In this document: positions 28,644 through 37,746 of the stretch, piece by piece
Layout of the letters: the number at the start of each line of letters is the position of its first letter
How positions within the stretch are numbered: the first letter of the stretch is position 1
Origin: Deltaproteobacteria bacterium
GTDB lineage: Bacteria; Myxococcota; Kuafuiibacteriia; Kuafuiibacteriales; Kuafuiibacteriaceae
Direction: 5' to 3'
Length of the DNA: 64,000 bases
Assembly (NCBI GenBank): GCA_040218735.1
Contig: JAVJQW010000021.1
Location: forward strand, 27,629-91,628
Position numbers and translations under genes: made by a program
Notes under the pieces: generated by a model
What the model was told of the DNA's origin: nothing
Database searches by the model: none
What the model saw: the letters and a program-made list of their open reading frames with translations, nothing else

Positions 28644-29198
28644 TCACCCGAAGCAGATTCGCCGGCAGAACTCTTCCTGGTCGCCCTCGGGGCACCGCGG
28701 CACGAACTCCAGCGTGTCGATGATCGGCTCCGGGTCGTCCTCGTCGGCGGCCGCCTCGACCTCGAGGATCAACCGCTCCTCCGCGACCTGCACGCCGATG
28801 GGCGACGGGCACAGGAACACCGGGATGCTGTTTTCGGTGTCGTACATGCCTTCCGCGTCCGGCGCGGGCATCAGCGTCGTGGTGTGCGTCGAGCGCGAGA
28901 CGAGGGTGCCGGCATCGGTGCGGCGCGCGAAGCGGCGGATGAGCGGCTTTTCCTCCGCGCCGAACTTGTCGAGCGAGGCCTCGGTGAAACGCAGGTTCAC
29001 GTAGACGTGAAAGCCACCTTGCGCGCCGGGTTGGAGGACGAGGTCGACGCCGTCGTCGACGGCGATGAAGCCCGCGGAGCCGTCTTCTTCGCCGGCGCCG
29101 ACGATGAGGGCGCCGCTGCCGGGGGGCGGGGGATCGGGAGGCTCGGTGCCCGAGCAGGCGAGGGCGAGCAGCACGAACGCGATGGGCGCGTGTCGCAT
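28644..29198 (-). CDS. Hypothetical lipoprotein
   Basis: MRHAPIAFVLLALACSG; the upstream part of the 326-aa ORF is low-complexity artefact. Confidence 0.45.
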   Translation of the reverse strand: MRHAPIAFVLLALACSGTEPPDPPPPGSGALIVGAGEEDGSAGFIAVDDGVDLVLQPGAQGGFHVYVNLRFTEASLDKFGAEEKPLIRRFARRTDAGTLVSRSTHTTTLMPAPDAEGMYDTENSIPVFLCPSPIGVQVAEERLILEVEAAADEDDPEPIIDTLEFVPRCPEGDQEEFCRRICFG

Positions 29199-29220
29199 CA
29201 CCCTCACCTTACCGGTGAAA

Positions 29221-30930
29221 TCAGCGGTTGGGTCCGCGGAATCGACGCGTGAGCGCGAACCCGCCGAGGCCCAGGAGCGCGAGCAGCGACGCGAGGCCGT
29301 TGCCGGCCGTCTCGGAGGCCGAGCACGCGCAGCCGTTGTCGCCGGCCGTCGAGGACGAGAGGTCCGCCGAGTTGTCGACCTCGATCGTCGGCGGGCCCTC
29401 CTCGCGGAGGAACTCGATGCGACGGCTGTACGGGACCGAGCTACGGTTCTTCGCCGTCCACGCGCCGGTGTTCTCCAGGTAGAAGCGGCGGCCGTCCGGC
29501 AGCTCGAAGATGCCGGGGGTGTTGTTCGCGCCGTCCTGCGTGGCGTCGCAGAGGTACGTGAAGGTCGCGACGTGCTCGCTCTCGACGTCCGGCAGGTCCG
29601 GGTTGAACGAGAAGACCGGGTCACGCGTCATCTCGTCGGGCGACAGCGTCGTGTACATGCGCGTCATCTTCGGCCACTTGTCGAACAGCGCACCGGCGTC
29701 GAGCGTCGGGACGACGATGCGCTCCCACAGCTTGTCGGCGAGCTCGACCGGGTCGAACTGGTACTCCTCGGCGTAGGCCTCGGGGCGATCGCGCTTGTAC
29801 TGGTCGAGGTACGCGTCCGGGAAGTTGTAGAAGTCGTCCGCGACGAACGGGTCGGAGCCGGCGGGGACGGGGAAGTAGGCCTGCAGGACGGTCGTGAGCG
29901 CGCCGCCGAACGTGAAGCCGCGCTGGCGCATGTAGCGGAGGAACTCGACCGCGTCCGTGATGCGCTTGATCTCCTCGTAGCTACCGAACCGGCCGTCGTA
30001 GTTGAGCAGGCCGCGCATCGGCTCCACCGAGCCCGCGTACTCCGTGACGAAGGACTGGCCGTCGGTGGCCTCGTTGGTCGCGGCGATGACGACGTCGTTG
30101 TAGTTGGCGCCGGCGTTGAACCAGTCGATGTGCTCCTCGTTGAGGATCGTGTGGCGGTAGTTGCGCGGGATGGCGCGGTGCTCACCGAGGACCCACACCT
30201 GGATGCCCATGTCGGGGTTGGCGGCGACCGACGTGAGGACGATCGGGATCATCGCGTAGTCGGCCTTGTAGCGGAGCACGACCGGCTGCACGTCGCCGAC
30301 GTCGTTGCCCTTGCGGAGCTTGAGCGCGAGGAAGTAGGCGCCGCTGTAGATGTACGGCTGGACGACGTCCTCGGTGCCGGTCGGGATGAAGTACCCGTTC
30401 TCGACGAGCCAATCGAACATCTCGTCCTTCGTGGACGCGTCGAGGACCACGTAGTCGTACGGGCCGATCGAGTCCTGGAGGACGACGAGCTTCTCACCGC
30501 CCTCGGCGTTCGGCGGGGACTGCGCCGAGTCGTTGAACGAGCCCGCGAGGCGCCCGCCGAACTGGAACTCACAGCTGTCGGGCGTGATGCGATCGACGCG
30601 GTACTTCGGCTGGGTCGTGTTGATGATCTGCGAGAACAGCTCCTCGACGCCGAGCTTGAGCCCCTCTTCGGGGACCGCGGGGAGGGGGAGCAGCCAACCG
30701 AACTCGCTGGCGTCGCCCTGGTACTGGATCTGGATGTGCGCCGTGACCATGCCGTCCTCGTGCGCGAAGACGATCCGCTCGCCGGCCTGGACGACGGGGA
30801 CGCTGGGGTCCGGAGGCGCGAAGCAACCGCACGCGTCGGCGCGGTTCGGAGCGAGCATGACGAGGGCAGTCGCGGAGCAGAGGGCAGCGAGGGTCGTCGT
30901 GGTGCGTGTCATCGCGACGCCATGATACAA
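29221..30930 (-). CDS. DUF2330-like secreted protein with a MYXO-CTERM sorting domain
   Basis: C-terminal GCACSASETAGNGLASLLALLGLGGFALTRRFR (Cys-rich box, TM helix, RR), typical of Myxococcota. Confidence 0.7.
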   Translation of the reverse strand: MYHGVAMTRTTTTLAALCSATALVMLAPNRADACGCFAPPDPSVPVVQAGERIVFAHEDGMVTAHIQIQYQGDASEFGWLLPLPAVPEEGLKLGVEELFSQIINTTQPKYRVDRITPDSCEFQFGGRLAGSFNDSAQSPPNAEGGEKLVVLQDSIGPYDYVVLDASTKDEMFDWLVENGYFIPTGTEDVVQPYIYSGAYFLALKLRKGNDVGDVQPVVLRYKADYAMIPIVLTSVAANPDMGIQVWVLGEHRAIPRNYRHTILNEEHIDWFNAGANYNDVVIAATNEATDGQSFVTEYAGSVEPMRGLLNYDGRFGSYEEIKRITDAVEFLRYMRQRGFTFGGALTTVLQAYFPVPAGSDPFVADDFYNFPDAYLDQYKRDRPEAYAEEYQFDPVELADKLWERIVVPTLDAGALFDKWPKMTRMYTTLSPDEMTRDPVFSFNPDLPDVESEHVATFTYLCDATQDGANNTPGIFELPDGRRFYLENTGAWTAKNRSSVPYSRRIEFLREEGPPTIEVDNSADLSSSTAGDNGCACSASETAGNGLASLLALLGLGGFALTRRFRGPNR

Positions 30931-31132
30931 GTCACGTGCCGTTGGCCAAGGTTCGTCAAAGCGTCTGCCGGCATCAGAATCTCGTGGTTGACGCGATGCG
31001 TTGTCGCAGTTGGCCGTAACCGGAGGGGGAACAGGGCGTAGCTCCTGGGCGTTTTGACCCCCGGTTCGGCGGATCCTTGCGATACCGTCCCGGCTTCCTT
31101 CAGACCCTCCGCTACCCTAACCAGGAGAACCG

Positions 31133-31465
31133 ATGAGCAGCAGCTACTACCAGCCCGAGGACCTCGCCCGATTCACGGAGATGTCGAAGACCAACCCCGA
31201 GGCGTTCGACAACTTCATGAAGTGGTACGCCGGCGCCATGGAGGCCGGCGAGGTCGACGCCAAGACCAAGGCCCTCGTCGCGCTCGCCGTCGCCTTCGCG
31301 ATCCAGGAGCCGTACTGCATCGACTCCTACGCCTCGAAGTGCCTCGACCTCGGCTGGTCGCCCGAACAGATGTGCGAGGCCGTGAACGTCGCGGCCAGCA
31401 TCCGCGGAGGCGGGACGATCGCCCACTGGGTGCAGGCCTGCAACACGATCGAGCGGAAGGGCTGA
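31133..31465 (+). CDS. Carboxymuconolactone decarboxylase (AhpD-like) family protein
   Basis: 110 aa; AhpD-like core with Cys pair EPYCIDSYASKC. Confidence 0.7.
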   Translation: MSSSYYQPEDLARFTEMSKTNPEAFDNFMKWYAGAMEAGEVDAKTKALVALAVAFAIQEPYCIDSYASKCLDLGWSPEQMCEAVNVAASIRGGGTIAHWVQACNTIERKG

Positions 31466-31469
31466 GTCG

Positions 31470-32618
31470 ATGACGCGCCGCCTCGCCGTCCTCGGCGCCG
31501 GGCCCATCGGCATCGAAGCCGCGCTCCTTGGTATGGAGCGAGGCTTCGAGGTCGCGGTGTACGAACGGGATGCGGTCGGCGCGTCGCTCGACGGCTGGGG
31601 ACCCACGCGGTTCTTCAGCCCCTTCGGCATGAACGTCTCGCCGCGCGTGAAGGCGGCGCTCGGCGACGACGCGCCGGACGATGACGCGCTCCTCACGGGG
31701 CCGGACTTCGTTCGGCGTGTGCTCGCGCCGATCGTGGACGGCCCGCTCTCGGGGCGCGTGCACGTGGGCGAGACGGTGGTACAGGTCGGGCGCGATCGCC
31801 TCCTGCGCCACGACAAAGCCGGCCACCCGATCCGCGGCGACCGCGACTTTCGGATCCTGCTCGACGGCCCGGACGGTGAGCACTTCGTCACCGCGGACGT
31901 CGTCCTCGACGCGACGGGCACCACCGTGCCGAGTCACCTCGGTCGCGGCGGGATGCTCGCCGCGGGAGAGCGAACGGTTCGTGCTCGCCTGTGGACGACA
32001 CTCGGTGACGTGCACCGGCGCCTCCCCGAGCTCGACGGTCAGCACGTCTTGATCGTCGGCCACGGGCACTCCGCGGCCAACGCGCTCAACGCGATCGCCG
32101 ACGCGGGGCGCGACGTTCGTGTCACGTGGGCCACGCGCGCGGTGAACACGCGGCCGTGTGTCGAGGTCGCGAACGATCCGCTCGGCGAGCGCGCGGCGAT
32201 CACACGTCGTGCGAACGATCTCGCGCACCGGCCGCCCGAGTGGCTGACGGTGGAGCGGCGCGCGCACGTCGAAGCGATCCGCGCGGTCGAACATTGCGTC
32301 GAGGTGACGCTGTCCGGCGATCGGACCGGCGTCTACGACGCGGTGGCGTCGTTCGTGGGGTATCGTCCCGACACCGAGATGCTCTCGGAGCTCCCGATCG
32401 CGATCTCCCCCGTGACCCAAGGCGCTGCGGGGATCCAGCGCGCGCTCGCGAACGTCACGGATTGTCTTGCGGTGCCGCGCATCGGCGCCGACGATCTGTC
32501 GTCCGGTGAGCCGGGCTTCTACATGATCGGATTCAAGAGCTACGGACGGATGACCGCGTTCCTGCTGAAGGACGGCCTCACCCAGCTCGAGGCGATCTTC
32601 GCGGACGGGCTCGGATGA
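31470..32618 (+). CDS. FAD/NAD(P)-binding oxidoreductase
   Basis: N-terminal Rossmann VLGAGPIGIEAA and a second GHGHSAANA motif. Confidence 0.7.
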   Translation: MTRRLAVLGAGPIGIEAALLGMERGFEVAVYERDAVGASLDGWGPTRFFSPFGMNVSPRVKAALGDDAPDDDALLTGPDFVRRVLAPIVDGPLSGRVHVGETVVQVGRDRLLRHDKAGHPIRGDRDFRILLDGPDGEHFVTADVVLDATGTTVPSHLGRGGMLAAGERTVRARLWTTLGDVHRRLPELDGQHVLIVGHGHSAANALNAIADAGRDVRVTWATRAVNTRPCVEVANDPLGERAAITRRANDLAHRPPEWLTVERRAHVEAIRAVEHCVEVTLSGDRTGVYDAVASFVGYRPDTEMLSELPIAISPVTQGAAGIQRALANVTDCLAVPRIGADDLSSGEPGFYMIGFKSYGRMTAFLLKDGLTQLEAIFADGLG

Positions 32619-33517
32619 GCCAGCTCGTTCAGATCCGCCCGCTGATGCCGGCGGAGGGGACGTTCCCGACCGTCCCGATGAACGCGCTCGATACGCTCTG
32701 GTTCCAGGTCGCAGGGACCATCTGCAACCTGGAGTGCACACACTGCTTCATCTCCTGCAGTCCGCAGAACCACGCGCACGAGATGATGACGCTCGAGCAG
32801 GTGCTCACGTACCTCGACGAGGCGAAGCAGCTCGGCGTGCGTGAGTACTACTTCACCGGCGGCGAGCCGCTGATGAACAAGTCGATCTACGAGATGTTCG
32901 AAGCCTCGCTCGCGCAGGGGCCGACGTCGTTCCTCACCAACGGCGTGCTGATCAAGGACAAGGTCGCCGAGCGCTTGAAGGCGCTGTCCGACGCCTCCGA
33001 CTACTCGTTCGACGTGCGCATCTCGATCGACGGTTACTCTGCGGCCGACAACGATCCGATCCGCGGCGCGGGGACCTACGATCGGATCCTCGCGGGGATC
33101 GAAGCGCTCGCGAACGTCGGCCTCAACCCGGTCATCACCGTCACGGAGGTCTGCGGAGACGCCGCGACGCGCGCCGGGCGAACGCGCTTCCTCGACTTCC
33201 TGAAGAAGATCGGTCTTTCGCAGCCACGCCTGAAGATCCTGCCGCTCCTCCGGATGGGCGCGGAGGAACATCGCGAGCGCGGGTACCACCGCTGGGAGTC
33301 ACTCGCGGGTGCGCACCTGTCGAAGGACGAGCTGTCGGCGCTGCAGTGTTCGTCGTGTCGCATCGCGTGCGCGAGCGGCGTGTACGTGTGCCCGATCCTG
33401 ATCGACGCCCCCGGCGCGCGGATGGGTGACACACTCGCGTCGACGTTGCGTTCGTTCCCGCTCGAGTACCAGGCGTGCTTCACGTGCCACGCGGAGGGGC
33501 TGTCGTGCGCGACGTGA
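32615..33517 (+). CDS. Radical SAM enzyme with a C-terminal SPASM/twitch-like Cys cluster
   Basis: CNLECTHC (Cx3Cx2C); seven C-terminal Cys (CSSCRIACASGVYVCP...CFTCHAEGLSC). Its start overlaps the upstream stop. Confidence 0.8.
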   Translation: MSQLVQIRPLMPAEGTFPTVPMNALDTLWFQVAGTICNLECTHCFISCSPQNHAHEMMTLEQVLTYLDEAKQLGVREYYFTGGEPLMNKSIYEMFEASLAQGPTSFLTNGVLIKDKVAERLKALSDASDYSFDVRISIDGYSAADNDPIRGAGTYDRILAGIEALANVGLNPVITVTEVCGDAATRAGRTRFLDFLKKIGLSQPRLKILPLLRMGAEEHRERGYHRWESLAGAHLSKDELSALQCSSCRIACASGVYVCPILIDAPGARMGDTLASTLRSFPLEYQACFTCHAEGLSCAT

Positions 33518-34296
33518 CGCGCGTGGCGTTCCTCGGCGGGATCTACTCGAACTACCTCGCGCTCGAAGCCGCGATTCGCGAAGCGAAGAAGCGCGGTGTG
33601 GATCAGATCTGGGCGCTCGGTGACTTCGGGGCCTTCGGGCCGCACCCGAACCGCTCCGTCGAGATCCTCCGCGAGCACGACATCCCCGCGATCCAAGGCA
33701 ACTACGAGGAGTCGTTGTCGACGAACGCTGAGGACTGCCACTGCGGCTACACGGATCCGCGCGACAATCACTACGCGCAGATCAGCTACGACTACACGTT
33801 CGAAAACACCGCGTCGGCGTACAAGGCGTGGATGGGGACGCTGCCGAAGCACGCGAGGCTCGAGCTCGACGGGCAGCGGCTGCTGCTCTGTCACGGCTCG
33901 CCGCGGACCATCAACGAGTTCCTCTGGCGGTCGAACACGCCCACGCCGTTCATCGAGCGAATGCTGGTGGAACACGACACCGACCTGGTCGTCTGCACGC
34001 ACACCGGGATTCACTGGGAGCGTCGCGACGATCGAGGACGCGGCGTCGTGAACGTGGGGGCGCTCGGGCGCCCGGCGAACGACGGTCGGACGAACGTGTG
34101 GTTCGCGATCCTCACGGGGCAGGGCGGGCGCGTGGACGTCGAATTCGTGCCTGTCGCGTACGACCACCATCGCCTCGCGCGTGAGATGTCCGATGAGGGA
34201 CTCCCTGACGAGTTCGTCGAAACCATCGAGACGGGGTGGTGGACGACCTGCCTGGAGATCCTCCCTGCGAAGGAGCGCGCCCAGGGCCGCTACTGA
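33514..34296 (+). CDS. Calcineurin-like metallophosphoesterase
   Basis: GTG start overlaps the rSAM stop (GTGA). GDxxD..GNHE-like motifs (ALGDFGAFGP, IQGNYEE). Confidence 0.7.
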   Translation: MTRVAFLGGIYSNYLALEAAIREAKKRGVDQIWALGDFGAFGPHPNRSVEILREHDIPAIQGNYEESLSTNAEDCHCGYTDPRDNHYAQISYDYTFENTASAYKAWMGTLPKHARLELDGQRLLLCHGSPRTINEFLWRSNTPTPFIERMLVEHDTDLVVCTHTGIHWERRDDRGRGVVNVGALGRPANDGRTNVWFAILTGQGGRVDVEFVPVAYDHHRLAREMSDEGLPDEFVETIETGWWTTCLEILPAKERAQGRY

Positions 34297-35170: not shown

Positions 35171-36553
35171 GTGGCCGTCGAGATCCACTTCGAGCACGGG
35201 ACGATCGTCGTCCCGAAGACGGACGAGGTCCCCGAGGCCGTCGACAAGTTCCTGAGCCTCGATCAGCGCAGCGGCAGCTACCGCGCGCCCGCCCAGCAGT
35301 ACCGCGACCTCGTGCTCACGCTGAAGCGTGACGGCGTCGACTTCGACGACCGCGCGCGGCGCTTCGATCCCCTCGCGTTGGAGCTGACCAAGAAGATCGA
35401 TCCCTTCCCGCACCAGGCGGAGGCGCTCGAGAAGTGGTGGACGGCGGGGCGGCGCGGGATCGTCGAGCTCCCCACCGGCGCCGGCAAGACGATCCTCGCG
35501 GTGCTCGCCATGGCGCGGGTGCAGCGGCCCACGCTGGTGGTCGTCCCGACGATCGACCTGCTCACGCAGTGGTCGAAGGTGCTGGAGGAGTTCTTCGGCG
35601 AGTCGATTGGGATGCTCGGCGGCGGGTCGCACGACCGGCAGCCGATCACCGTCGCCACGTACGACTCGGCGCAGATGCAGATCGAGTTCATCGGCAACCA
35701 CTTCGGGTTCCTGGTCTGCGACGAGTGCCACCACCTCCCCGCGCCGGCGTACCGATTCATCGCGGAGGGATCGATCGCACCGTTCAGGCTCGGGCTCACC
35801 GCGACGCTCGAACGCACGGACGGCGGGGAGCAGACGGCGATGAACCTGCTCGGGCCGCTGGTGCATCAGGTCGGGATCGAGACGCTGGAGGGGGACTACC
35901 TCGCGCCGTACGACCTGGAGTCGGTCGGCGTGCACCTGTCCGAGGAGGAGCAGGCGCGCTACGACGCGTCGCGCTCGCAGTACCTGACGTTCCTCCGCGG
36001 GAGCGGCGTGCGGCTCGACCGTCCGCAGGGCTGGGCGCAGTTCATCATGCGCGCGCACCAGAGCGACGAGGGGCGCGCGGCGTTTCGTGCGTATCGTGAG
36101 CAGAAGCGGATCGCGATCGCTTCGGAGGCGAAGCTCGCCGCGCTGTGGGCCGTGCTCGTCAAACACCGCGAGGACCGGACGATCGTCTTCACCGAGGACA
36201 ACGAGACCGTGTACCGGCTCTCGCGGCGGTTCATGTTCCCGGCGATCACGCACCAGACGAAGGCGCCGGAGCGCAAACACTGGCTGACCGCGTTTGCGAA
36301 GGGCGACGTGCGGGTGCTGCTGACCTCGAAGGTGTTGAACGAGGGGGTCGACGTCCCCGAGGCGAACGTCGGCGTGGTGTTGAGCGGGAGCGGGAGCGTG
36401 CGGGAGCACGTGCAGCGGCTCGGGCGGATCCTGCGCAAGCGCCCGGGGAAGCGCGCGGTGCTCTACGAGATCTTCACGGAGGTCGCGGCGGAGGTGAACA
36501 TCACCGAGCGTCGTCGGCAGCACCGCGCCTACCAGAAGGACGAGCCGTGCTGA
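35171..36553 (+). CDS. XPB/Ssl2-like superfamily-2 DNA helicase
   Basis: Walker A GAGKT, DECH box, helicase motif VI; 460 aa. Confidence 0.8.
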   Translation: MAVEIHFEHGTIVVPKTDEVPEAVDKFLSLDQRSGSYRAPAQQYRDLVLTLKRDGVDFDDRARRFDPLALELTKKIDPFPHQAEALEKWWTAGRRGIVELPTGAGKTILAVLAMARVQRPTLVVVPTIDLLTQWSKVLEEFFGESIGMLGGGSHDRQPITVATYDSAQMQIEFIGNHFGFLVCDECHHLPAPAYRFIAEGSIAPFRLGLTATLERTDGGEQTAMNLLGPLVHQVGIETLEGDYLAPYDLESVGVHLSEEEQARYDASRSQYLTFLRGSGVRLDRPQGWAQFIMRAHQSDEGRAAFRAYREQKRIAIASEAKLAALWAVLVKHREDRTIVFTEDNETVYRLSRRFMFPAITHQTKAPERKHWLTAFAKGDVRVLLTSKVLNEGVDVPEANVGVVLSGSGSVREHVQRLGRILRKRPGKRAVLYEIFTEVAAEVNITERRRQHRAYQKDEPC

Positions 36554-37746
36554 CGCGGGACTTGCTGCACTACCGAACGAAGGGCGGCGTGGTGCGCCCG
36601 GTGTACGTGAAGCCGGACGACGCCGAGCGGCTCGCGTACGCGGGGGCCTTGGTGGCGATCGTCGAGGAAGCGCTCGGTGAGGAGCGGGGCGTTCTGACCG
36701 AGGCGCTCGACGGGCGCGCGCGTGGGGAGAAGCGGCAGAAGTTCGCCAAGGGGTTGGTGAAGCTGCTGACGGACCGCATGACGTTCGACGAGCCGCCGAA
36801 GGACGCCGAGGCGCTGCGGCGGACGACGTTCGAGGCGGCGGCTTCGTTGATGCGCAACCTCGAAGAGGACGCGACGATCGCGGACTACGAGGCGGCGCTG
36901 GGTGCGGACCGTGACCTCGAGCTCACGCGCGCGCAGATCTACGCGGACCTCGCCGAGCACCGGAAGTTCTTGGAGTGGAAGGCGCTCGACGCGGCGGGGC
37001 TCCTCGAGCGGTACAACCTCGCGCAGGCGCAGGGGCTCGTGATGTTCGCGCGGCGGTTGTCGATCGCGTTCGAGGAGGTCGACACCGCAGTCGTGCGGCG
37101 GGTGTTCCGGTGGTTGAAGTTCTGCCGGTTGGTCGCCGAGCTCGAGAAACACGGCGACGCGTTTGTGCTGCACGTCGAAGGGCCGGCCGCGATGTTCGAG
37201 AGCTCGAAGAAGTACGGGTTGCAGCTCGCGATCTTCCTCGAGGTGGTGCCGCTGCTCCCGAAGTTCACGCTGGAGGCGGTCGTGGAGCTGCCGCGCCGCG
37301 ACTCGGTGACGTTCATGCTCACGGACGAGGACGGGCTCGTCTCGCCGTTGAAGGCGGTGGTGGGGCACGTGCCGGAGGAGGTGACGACGACGCTCGAGAA
37401 GCTCTCCTCGATCGAGGGGTGGACCGTCGATCTCGAGACGGTGCCGCGCAGCGTGGGGGCGTCGGGCTGGTGTGTCCCGGACCTGCGTTTCTCGAGGACG
37501 GACGGCGCCGAGATCGCGGTCGAGCTGTTCCACGCGTGGCACAAGGGGGCGCTCCTCCGGCGCCTCGACGAGCTCGCGTCGAAGCCGGACGCGGGGCTCT
37601 TCCTCGGCGTGGATCGGGCGGTCGCGAAGAAGAAGGACATCGCGGAGCGCATCGACGATCACCCGCAGGTCTTTGCGTTCAACAAGTTCCCTTCGGTGCG
37701 TGCGTTGACGACCGTGGTGAAGCGGTTCGAAGAAGGGACGTCGTGA
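36547..37746 (+). CDS. DUF790/Bax1-like nuclease partner of XPB
   Basis: GTG start overlaps the XPB stop. Size and position match archaeal/bacterial Bax1. Confidence 0.6.
   Translation: MLTRDLLHYRTKGGVVRPVYVKPDDAERLAYAGALVAIVEEALGEERGVLTEALDGRARGEKRQKFAKGLVKLLTDRMTFDEPPKDAEALRRTTFEAAASLMRNLEEDATIADYEAALGADRDLELTRAQIYADLAEHRKFLEWKALDAAGLLERYNLAQAQGLVMFARRLSIAFEEVDTAVVRRVFRWLKFCRLVAELEKHGDAFVLHVEGPAAMFESSKKYGLQLAIFLEVVPLLPKFTLEAVVELPRRDSVTFMLTDEDGLVSPLKAVVGHVPEEVTTTLEKLSSIEGWTVDLETVPRSVGASGWCVPDLRFSRTDGAEIAVELFHAWHKGALLRRLDELASKPDAGLFLGVDRAVAKKKDIAERIDDHPQVFAFNKFPSVRALTTVVKRFEEGTS

Follow-up and report, generated by a model that had tools for sequence, protein, structure and literature searches.

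A radical SAM enzyme coupled to a Car1-like, remodelled phosphoesterase in a putative arsenic-biotransformation operon

This article concerns a four-gene operon at 31133-34296 on the plus strand of a stretch of DNA from a Deltaproteobacteria bacterium (assembly GCA_040218735.1, contig JAVJQW010000021.1). The whole stretch that was analysed, 64 kb long with a GC content of ~68%, is called the window below. The operon encodes an AhpD-like thiol protein of the CMD family, a flavoprotein, an enzyme of the radical S-adenosylmethionine (SAM) type and a metallophosphoesterase (MPE)-fold protein that seems to be related to the arsenate reductase Car1. We hold it somewhat likelier than even, with a probability of roughly 55%, that the operon is an arsenic-biotransformation module in which arsenic is reduced and then alkylated. 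The link of the operon to arsenic is well supported, and we infer both the carbon-arsenic (C-As) chemistry of the radical SAM enzyme and its product. The association of the radical SAM gene with the Car1-like gene is far beyond chance, and uncultured bacteria of soils carry the two together widely. Most likely, the operon is a system for arsenic organification that is based on a radical SAM enzyme and coupled to a derived Car1-type reductase; it would be akin to the ArsS/ArsM and ArsL/ArsM systems without being identical to either. The operon is made up as follows:

31123-31127, plus strand: Shine-Dalgarno-like AGGAG, 5 nt ahead of the first ATG of the operon (read from the sequence)
31133-31465, plus strand: gene 1, AhpD-like CMD-family thiol protein, 110 aa (Pfam CMD, PF02627, 49.3 bits vs. 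a cutoff of 23)
31470-32618, plus strand: gene 2, FAD/NAD(P)H flavoprotein of the Pyr_redox_3 group, 382 aa (Pfam Pyr_redox_3, 49 bits)
32615-33517, plus strand: gene 3, radical SAM enzyme, 300 aa (Pfam Radical_SAM, 76 bits)
33514-34296, plus strand: gene 4, MPE-fold protein, 260 aa from GTG 33514 (Pfam Metallophos_2, 51 bits)

An earlier note on this DNA had listed these four consecutive plus-strand reading frames, and their coordinates are confirmed; their labels agree with the Pfam assignments. The note also stated that the last three junctions overlap by 4 nt. This holds for the flavoprotein and radical SAM genes (ATGA, 32615-32618) and for the radical SAM and MPE genes (GTGA, 33514-33517), whereas the CMD and flavoprotein genes are separated by a 4-nt spacer (TGA gtcg ATG). 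The start of gene 4 is ambiguous, with in-frame GTG codons at 33475, 33505 and 33514, each of which overlaps the radical SAM gene. GTG 33505 fits as the start because the 97%-identical homologue P0121 has 263 aa.

The gene 4 protein had been taken for a phosphoesterase. Half of the canonical dinuclear metal site is lost, however, and the protein appears to be a Car1-type relative instead. It lacks the full motif set of a dinuclear metallophosphoesterase (DxH, GD, GNH[DE], H, GHxH). Motif I, canonically DxH, is replaced in its family (mean column identity 69%) by an invariant GGIYSN (G-x-Y), the GNH of motif III reads GNY, and the second His of GHxH is not conserved; the GD motif, the motif III Asn, His127 and His163 are kept. 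Since motif I and GNH are changed, metal site A is lost and site B retained, and without the canonical metal-A ligands an ordinary phosphoesterase chemistry is unlikely. The pair Cys75-x-Cys77 (DCHCGY, in the segment DCHCGYTDPR) is invariant in 22 of 22 sequences of the family, and Cys246 is a third invariant cysteine. The structure model (pLDDT 86.6) turned out to be closest to SapH (3qfm), with a TM-score of 0.77-0.79.

Relatives of the gene 4 protein were searched for among annotated plasmids. The plasmid homologues are 27-33% identical to it and score 110-127 bits, whereas no generic MPE of the PDB exceeds 46 bits. All five that were inspected, with identities of 28-31%, sit inside ars operons, with no radical SAM gene nearby:

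Mucilaginibacter: ArsR-DUF6428-GNAT-ArsC-hypothetical protein-Acr3-MPE-MPE
Paraclostridium: ArsR-MPE-ArsM
Adhaeribacter: ArsR-ArsN2-ArsM-MPE-Acr3
Rubrobacter: ArsC-ArsM-ArsR-ArsH-MPE-ArsC
Hymenobacter: ArsR-DUF6428-MPE-GNAT-Acr3-ArsC

In the alignment, Cys75/Cys77 of the window protein coincide with Cys74/Cys76 of the ars-operon homologues, and GNY is common to both. Car1 is described second-hand, in a paper that cites Shen et al. 2024, as an arsenate reductase of Rufibacter tibetensis that evolved from a metallophosphoesterase (PMC12124457). According to the same paper, the Paraclostridium-type MPE is ~40% identical to Car1 and keeps Cys74 and Cys76, which are essential for reduction, and its host strain methylates arsenate (PMC12124457). 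By way of the ars-operon homologues the gene 4 protein is likened to Car1, and judged by its sequence it is a putative arsenate or organoarsenate reductase. The Car1-ArsM pairing in ars operons is, by analogy, the direct counterpart of the pairing of the Car1-like and radical SAM genes.

Three of the plasmid contexts deserve mention in their own right. In the plasmid of Mucilaginibacter robiniae (L085:7004-8496), the first of two tandem MPE genes encodes DCGC and GNY, and the second encodes GNH without the CxC pair; as their motifs differ, the two paralogues probably differ in function. The arsM gene of the Paraclostridium bifermentans plasmid pHD0315_2-1 (L086:5773-6531) has an in-frame TGA at the position of the fourth As(III)-binding cysteine (LYCG*VTGA), which suggests a selenocysteine-containing ArsM. 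A match on a Marinobacter plasmid lies in an unannotated stretch with an uninformative context.

The radical SAM enzyme is, as far as its sequence tells, an uncharacterised twitch/SPASM-like member of the superfamily that falls outside every named family. None of the NCBIfam models reaches its cutoff, the best being Rv1681 with 95 bits vs. 380. The models of MftC (77.9 bits vs. 265) and StsB (70.2 vs. 625) also stay far below their cutoffs, ScmF matches weakly as well, and all these matches are restricted to the radical SAM core. The cluster motif C37-x3-C41-x2-C44 and the GGEP motif (G82-G83-E84-P85) are invariant in the family alignments. The note's description of a seven-cysteine SPASM/twitch C-terminus was correct in the count for the window protein (C245, C248, C252, C259, C288, C291 and C298). 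Only five of the seven are invariant in the family, namely C245, C259, C288, C291 and C298 with the spacing C-x13-C...C-x2-C-x6-C, and there is no Pfam match to SPASM (PF13186). All eight cysteines (three plus five) are invariant in members down to 25% identity. The AlphaFold structure model (pLDDT 79.5) best matches BlsE, SkfB, anSME and MoaA, with Foldseek E-values of 2e-10 to 2e-7 and identities of 16-21%; SuiB and viperin are further near solved folds.

The enzyme has many relatives. Among the homologues listed, each of the top 120 shares 63% identity or more with it; their hosts are Myxococcales, Acidobacteriota and Thermoanaerobaculia, and NCBI calls them simply 'radical SAM protein'. 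In a scan of 185,579 genomes, one for each GTDB species, the gene turned up at 590 loci or more, and when 1.84 billion cluster representatives were searched with a profile, 186 clusters matched at E<=1e-30. Most hosts are uncultured members of the Acidobacteriota and Thermoanaerobaculia; Myxococcota, Elusimicrobia, Fibrobacteres and Holophagales are also represented.

The neighbourhood of the radical SAM gene was compared in 83 loci, of which the genome scan supplied 80 and look-ups of contigs the other three. Genes of the loci were called with a codon log-odds caller trained on tblastn-defined genes, and to count neighbours, the 83 loci were searched by tblastn with the proteins of the window and with those neighbours that recur. 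An MPE-fold (Car1-like) gene lies near the radical SAM gene in 79 of the 83 loci, which span several phyla. The flavoprotein was found in 63 loci, a DUF2064 protein in 47, the CMD protein in 35, thioredoxin in 16, an ArsM-family methyltransferase in eight and DUF547 in six. The CMD gene adjoins the flavoprotein gene in every order found. The orders seen include DUF2064-CMD-flavoprotein-radical SAM-MPE (17 loci), radical SAM-MPE-flavoprotein (14) and DUF2064-radical SAM-MPE-CMD-flavoprotein (7); the window order, CMD-flavoprotein-radical SAM-MPE, occurs in six loci, and radical SAM-CMD-flavoprotein-MPE is also seen. Survival of the partner set through such rearrangement is a classical signature of functional coupling. 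The earlier view of the four genes as a co-functional unit is borne out in this way, and the case that the note regarded as fatal to its proposal, a housekeeping family with unrelated neighbours in other genomes, does not apply: the partners are strongly conserved. Obligate co-translation, on the other hand, was too strong a claim, since the genes are not always in the same order and the median distance from the radical SAM gene to the MPE gene is ~105 nt across the 83 loci, with 1-7 kb in some of them.

A distant version of the system is present in a cultured organism. Plasmid p546-1 of Roseomonas haemaphysalidis 546 carries, in one direction, genes for a TIGR04282-family glycosyltransferase, a DUF547 protein, two radical SAM proteins, an ATP-binding cassette (ABC) importer of the PhnD/E/C-like type and an MPE. 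The second radical SAM protein (315 aa) is 32% identical to the window enzyme and has all eight cysteines. The MPE is likewise 32% identical to the gene 4 protein and contains GGPYSN and DCGCGF. The gene of the first radical SAM protein, of 459 aa (L084:7547-8926), lies between the DUF547 gene and that of the 315-aa homologue, directly upstream of the latter.

Several partners belong to, or stand close to, families of arsenic metabolism. The DUF2064 neighbours score 57.9-92.2 bits on TIGR04282, the model of the arsenosugar biosynthesis glycosyltransferase (cutoff 134). The CMD protein matches TIGR04169, the arsenosugar biosynthesis-associated peroxidase-like protein, over its full length with 115.6 bits, a near miss of the cutoff of 120; it also weakly matches the AhpD domain of the ArsM/AhpD fusion selenoprotein model NF041537. 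Because both lie below the cutoffs, they are sister groups of the ArsS-associated families and not members of them. In eight loci, a 384-aa ArsM is encoded upstream of the radical SAM gene, directly in five of them and with pstS, pstC, pstA and pstB in between in the other three. This ArsM reaches 337.7 bits on the arsinothricin-type model NF040538 (cutoff 500) and 212 bits on the model for arsenite methyltransferases in general. With arsenite methyltransferases annotated by PGAP it shares 42-46% identity, and none of the four cysteine positions that bind As(III) is lost (CC, GCG-P, SNCV, GC[IV][ST]GA).

Gene fusions point in the same direction. In P0373 (618 aa, 40% identity), a member of the radical SAM family is fused to a complete ArsM domain (NF008823, 237 bits), and P0477 (25% identity) is a more distant fusion of this kind. 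The radical SAM-ArsM fusion is a single reading frame in two independent metagenome contigs (L092 and L093). In P0506, a bona fide TIGR04282 protein (163.6 bits vs. 134) is fused to a distant relative of the radical SAM enzyme (30% identity). Fusions of the flavoprotein (P0367 and P0385) and of thioredoxin (P0394) to the radical SAM enzyme were also found. The pst and other phosphate-type transport genes nearby fit an uptake of arsenate; phosphate/phosphonate-type importers and a phosphate porin are adjacent in other loci. The specificity of the ABC importers is ambiguous among aminoethylphosphonate, thiamine, sulfate and molybdate types.

One or two GNAT genes lie between the radical SAM and MPE genes in four loci (L069:8687-9777, L048:8863-9378, L053:3644-4087 and L059:10857-11294). 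They were not used as evidence for arsenic, because their matches to ArsN1, ArsN2 and PhnO are weak and non-specific (25-35 bits). If the product were an amino-acid-like arsenical, these GNATs could be self-resistance enzymes.

Cys62 and Cys70 are invariant in the CMD protein. The CPGC motif of the AhpD structure 5dik aligns with E59-P-Y-C62, so that the second cysteine only is kept and CxxC becomes ExxC. The flavoprotein has the dinucleotide-binding motifs GAGPIG and GHGHSA and, in the alignment, a single invariant cysteine, Cys332. Its best solved relatives are the bacillithiol disulfide reductases YpdA/Bdr (7a76 and 7a7b), with a PDB profile match over residues 2-50 only. On the YpdA model TIGR04018 it scores 32.1 bits vs. 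339.9, in the N-terminal Rossmann region only, and it falls outside that family. The flavoprotein is the presumed supplier of electrons to the AhpD-like protein and/or to the cluster of the radical SAM enzyme.

Taken as an arsenic-biotransformation module, the operon might work as follows. Arsenate would enter the cell via phosphate-type transporters. The Car1-like protein, as its homology suggests, would use the Cys75/Cys77 pair to reduce As(V) to As(III), the substrate being either arsenate or a pentavalent organoarsenical intermediate, and would itself become oxidised. The AhpD-like protein (Cys62, Cys70) and the flavoprotein (Cys332) may then form an NAD(P)H-driven thiol relay that re-reduces the reductase, in analogy to Lpd/AhpD or TrxR/Trx; the [4Fe-4S] cluster of the radical SAM enzyme may receive electrons from the flavoprotein too. 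This electron-transfer role is suggested by the adjacency of the two genes and by the flavoprotein and thioredoxin fusions. In a third step, the radical SAM enzyme would take over the As(III) species, cleave SAM reductively and add a SAM-derived carbon radical to arsenic, thereby forming a C-As bond. By analogy with ArsS, the radical would most likely be 5'-deoxyadenosyl. An auxiliary cluster, As(III) or both would be bound by the five additional invariant cysteines. Formation of a C-As bond by this enzyme is proposed because of its fusion to and adjacency with ArsM, the partners shared with ArsS and the precedent of other SAM enzymes. In many other genomes ArsM and a TIGR04282-related DUF2064 protein join the core, which suggests an arsenosugar-like or other complex organoarsenical as the product.

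A number of observations weigh against this interpretation. No arsM, DUF2064, thioredoxin, arsR, acr3 or arsC gene lies within the 64-kb window. As the window has no classical ars gene, the assignment of its operon to arsenic draws on orthology, the cysteine pair and the near match to TIGR04169; the window radical SAM enzyme is 55-83% identical to those encoded in arsenic-linked loci. Adjacency to ArsM is limited to eight of the 83 loci, and no Car1-like gene was found near L092 and L093, the loci of the closest fusions between the radical SAM enzyme and ArsM. Motif I reads GG[IP]YSN in the window clade and the Roseomonas homologue vs. SDIHxN in the ars-operon homologues of Car1 type. Close homologues of the CMD protein are labelled generically (CMD) by NCBI, and all score below the TIGR04169 cutoff. 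The chemistry of the radical SAM enzyme is deduced from context, since the enzyme is neither a member of ArsS nor ArsL-like. On the ArsS model TIGR04167 it scores 54.3 bits, with a cutoff of 300, over residues 23-169 only, and a Pfam scan at E<=0.01 gave Radical_SAM and Fer4_12 only, with no match to DUF3641; the C-terminal domain of ArsS is of the DUF3641 type and rich in cysteine or selenocysteine. An ArsL-like identity is ruled out by architecture. Finally, the 80 genome loci are the best of at least 590, are skewed to Acidobacteriota and all come from metagenome-assembled genomes, and many of the 83 loci are cut by contig ends.

The same arsenic context would also be seen if the operon served the anaerobic degradation or detoxification of organoarsenicals. 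The Car1-like protein would then reduce methylarsenate (MAs(V)), dimethylarsenate (DMAs(V)) or an aromatic arsenical, and the radical SAM enzyme would cleave the C-As bond as an oxygen-independent counterpart of ArsI. The logic of reducing first and acting afterwards fits this equally well, and many hosts are Thermoanaerobaculia, Holophagales, Elusimicrobia and Fibrobacteres, groups that are known to include many anaerobes. We know of no oxygen-independent C-As lyase. The fusion to and adjacency with ArsM, a builder of C-As bonds, the DUF2064 partners related to (in P0506, belonging to) a family that accompanies arsenosugar biosynthesis, and the lack of a consistently adjacent efflux pump for the released As(III) make such a lyase not very likely. 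It is also unlikely that the radical SAM enzyme modifies the MPE-fold protein, for example at DCHCGYTDPR, as anSME does with sulfatases, so that the modified protein would be the only catalyst. The near one-to-one pairing of the two genes (79 of 83 loci), their translational coupling, the presence of the protein or peptide modifiers SkfB, anSME and SuiB among the nearest solved folds, and an MPE-fold partner with an invariant cysteine motif and a remodelled active site would all suit a maturase. However, the five ars operons with CxC-bearing Car1-type homologues lack a radical SAM gene in the vicinity, and the fusion loci L092 and L093 have no MPE gene nearby. The two genes are separated by 1-7 kb in some loci, and the fusions that were inspected within the top 150 representatives join the radical SAM enzyme to ArsM, the flavoprotein, DUF2064 or thioredoxin, never to the MPE-fold protein.

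A role in phosphorus or nucleotide metabolism would have the radical SAM enzyme modify a nucleotide or a phosphonate-type substrate from which the phosphoesterase removes phosphate, in phosphate starvation. Importers of the Pst, PhnD/E and aminoethylphosphonate-like types and a phosphate-selective porin are adjacent in ~10 loci and in Roseomonas, BlsE, viperin and MoaA, which act on nucleotides, are among the radical SAM enzymes of known structure that come closest, and the closest solved fold to gene 4, SapH, is an Ap4A hydrolase. We nevertheless consider this quite unlikely: the gene 4 protein is devoid of the Asp and His of motif I and of the catalytic His of GNH, it bears the cysteine pair of the arsenate-reductase lineage, and in the methyltransferase found next to or fused with the radical SAM enzyme, the four cysteines with which ArsM binds As(III) are all present. 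Phosphate transporters are, moreover, a known entry route of arsenate. The earlier note had started from a peptide or cofactor maturase, and a maturase of a ribosomally synthesised and post-translationally modified peptide (RiPP) or of a redox cofactor (mycofactocin, PQQ or sactipeptide type), with a precursor that escaped detection, would agree with the cysteine-rich C-terminus and the weak matches to MftC, StsB and ScmF. These matches are far under the cutoffs and lie in the radical SAM core, and Pfam detects no SPASM domain, in line with the note's own remark that the operon matches none of the three pathways. The only precursor-type candidate in 30931-31132 is a 37-aa reading frame (30906-31019) that enters the 5' end of the opposite-strand upstream gene, and no small reading frame recurs beside the radical SAM gene in the 83 loci, so the note was right that a precursor peptide gene is not evident. 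With a partner set that points to arsenic biotransformation (TIGR04169-like, TIGR04282-like, ArsM and Pst-type proteins), the maturase framing is not supported, and a RiPP or cofactor pathway appears very improbable.

The genes flanking the operon are unrelated to it:

29221-30930, minus strand: upstream flank, DUF2330 protein, 569 aa, with a signal-peptide-like N-terminus, divergent from the operon
Downstream flank: lipoprotein-like reading frame
35171-36553, plus strand: downstream flank, XPB-type helicase (ResIII, Helicase_C and XPB_DRD domains)
36556-37746, plus strand: downstream flank, DUF790 protein, directly after the helicase

A 658-aa reading frame at 29065-31041 on the plus strand, antisense to the DUF2330 gene, is most likely an artefact of high GC. 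The helicase and the DUF790 protein resemble the bacterial XPB/Bax1-like pair. The helicase and the 258-aa reading frame preceding it, the two covered by the comparison, are syntenic in L004. No sigma-70-type promoter was recognised on the plus strand upstream of the operon, and no terminator pattern stood out. The search for riboswitches and other Rfam families gave nothing at E<=1 in 30931-31132, except a chance miRNA match.

Some further genes recur near the radical SAM gene in other genomes and were set aside as clade synteny. These are a set of type III polyketide synthase (PKS), fatty acyl-AMP ligase (FAAL) and acyl carrier protein (ACP) genes, ferrochelatase, DUF2911, cyanophycin synthetase with isoaspartyl dipeptidase, a MacAB-type efflux system, a cation diffusion facilitator (CDF) transporter, RibF and ZnuA. 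The divergent set FAAL-ACP-unknown-type III PKS (alkylresorcinol/alkylpyrone-like) lies ~2-7 kb upstream of the radical SAM gene in L054, L057, L060, L063, L080 and others. It adjoins a DUF2064-ArsM-radical SAM-MPE-flavoprotein cluster in one Thermoanaerobaculia/Acidobacteriota clade, and a link of FAAL and type III PKS to arsenic-containing lipids is conceivable. In 11 loci of that clade, a ferrochelatase gene (TIGR00109, 297 bits) follows the flavoprotein gene on the same strand (L063:11052-12188, L072:11119-12249, L081:11080-12225 and others). In L028, L031, L033, L037, L043 and L062, the opposite strand upstream carries a gene for cyanophycin synthetase (TIGR02068, 1171 bits) together with one that resembles isoaspartyl dipeptidase; this recurrence is probably lineage synteny.

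A bolder extension of the arsenic reading can be put forward tentatively, at less than even odds. The radical SAM enzyme might represent a fourth, unrecognised class of SAM-dependent C-As enzymes after ArsM, ArsS and ArsL, an obligate partner of a Car1-type reductase that hands over As(III). It would make an organoarsenical in Acidobacteriota and Myxococcota or, in reverse, act as an oxygen-independent C-As lyase. The origin of many soil organoarsenicals is, to our knowledge, still unexplained. If the proposal is true, at least 590 loci in mostly uncultured hosts would make up a large unrecognised reservoir of arsenic-organifying capacity, the enzyme would be a new radical SAM chemotype acting on a metalloid, and the gene 4 protein would be a second, more derived case of a phosphoesterase fold turned to redox chemistry. 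The radical SAM/Car1-like pair could serve as a gene marker in surveys of arsenic cycling, which now count only arsM, arsS and similar genes. With a distant version on a plasmid of the cultured Roseomonas haemaphysalidis 546, the hypothesis is tractable.

Compared with known systems, the gene 4 protein is most reminiscent of Car1. As far as Car1 is described in PMC12124457, the two share the MPE fold, a vicinal cysteine pair at the same position (75/77 vs. 74/76) and GNY in place of GNH. The Car1-type proteins also have a C-As bond-forming enzyme as a partner, ArsM in the ars operons and, as proposed, the radical SAM enzyme here. In contrast to the ars-operon homologues, which are partnered with Acr3, ArsC or ArsR, the window protein is partnered with the radical SAM enzyme and has an extra conserved C-terminal segment, GWWTTCLEILPAKER, with the third invariant cysteine.

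The first two genes recall the AhpD/flavoprotein relays (Lpd/DlaT/AhpD, TrxR/Trx and YpdA/Bdr), in that a gene for a small CMD-fold thiol protein lies directly upstream of one for a two-Rossmann FAD/NAD(P)H flavoprotein. The operon differs from the AhpD relays by ExxC with a second cysteine eight residues later, and from the disulfide reductase flavoproteins by the lone Cys332, in place of a redox pair that is N-terminal or of the CxxC kind. In overall fold the radical SAM enzyme matches the twitch/SPASM enzymes BlsE, SkfB, anSME and MoaA, with CX3CX2C and a C-terminal cysteine cluster. It differs from them in its genomic partners, among which there are no peptide or sugar-nucleotide pathway genes.

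In the ArsL/ArsM pathway of arsinothricin, as here, a radical SAM enzyme is combined with an ArsM-type methyltransferase. The GNAT genes inserted in the cluster in four loci are a further likeness, since GNAT enzymes are a known type of arsinothricin resistance. The radical SAM enzyme of the operon has 300 aa, the cluster motif at residues 37-44 and eight invariant cysteines, whereas ArsL has 428 aa, the motif at residues 194-201 and three conserved cysteines (PMC8552651). The arsenosugar system ArsS/ArsM, in which ArsS makes the C-As bond by adenosylating arsenic (PMC12159101), also has features in common with the operon. The radical SAM enzyme is ~300 aa long and rich in cysteine at its C-terminus in either system, and both associate with ArsM, a small AhpD-like thiol protein and a DUF2064 protein, the latter two being represented here by sister groups below the model cutoffs. 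The operon adds a near-obligatory Car1-like reductase and a flavoprotein, two components that we have not seen described for ArsS systems. Every bacterial C-As bond known so far is the work of a SAM enzyme, ArsS and ArsL being the ones of radical SAM type (PMC12159101; 10.1101/2024.02.01.577332), and the enzyme of this operon would, if the proposal holds, join them.

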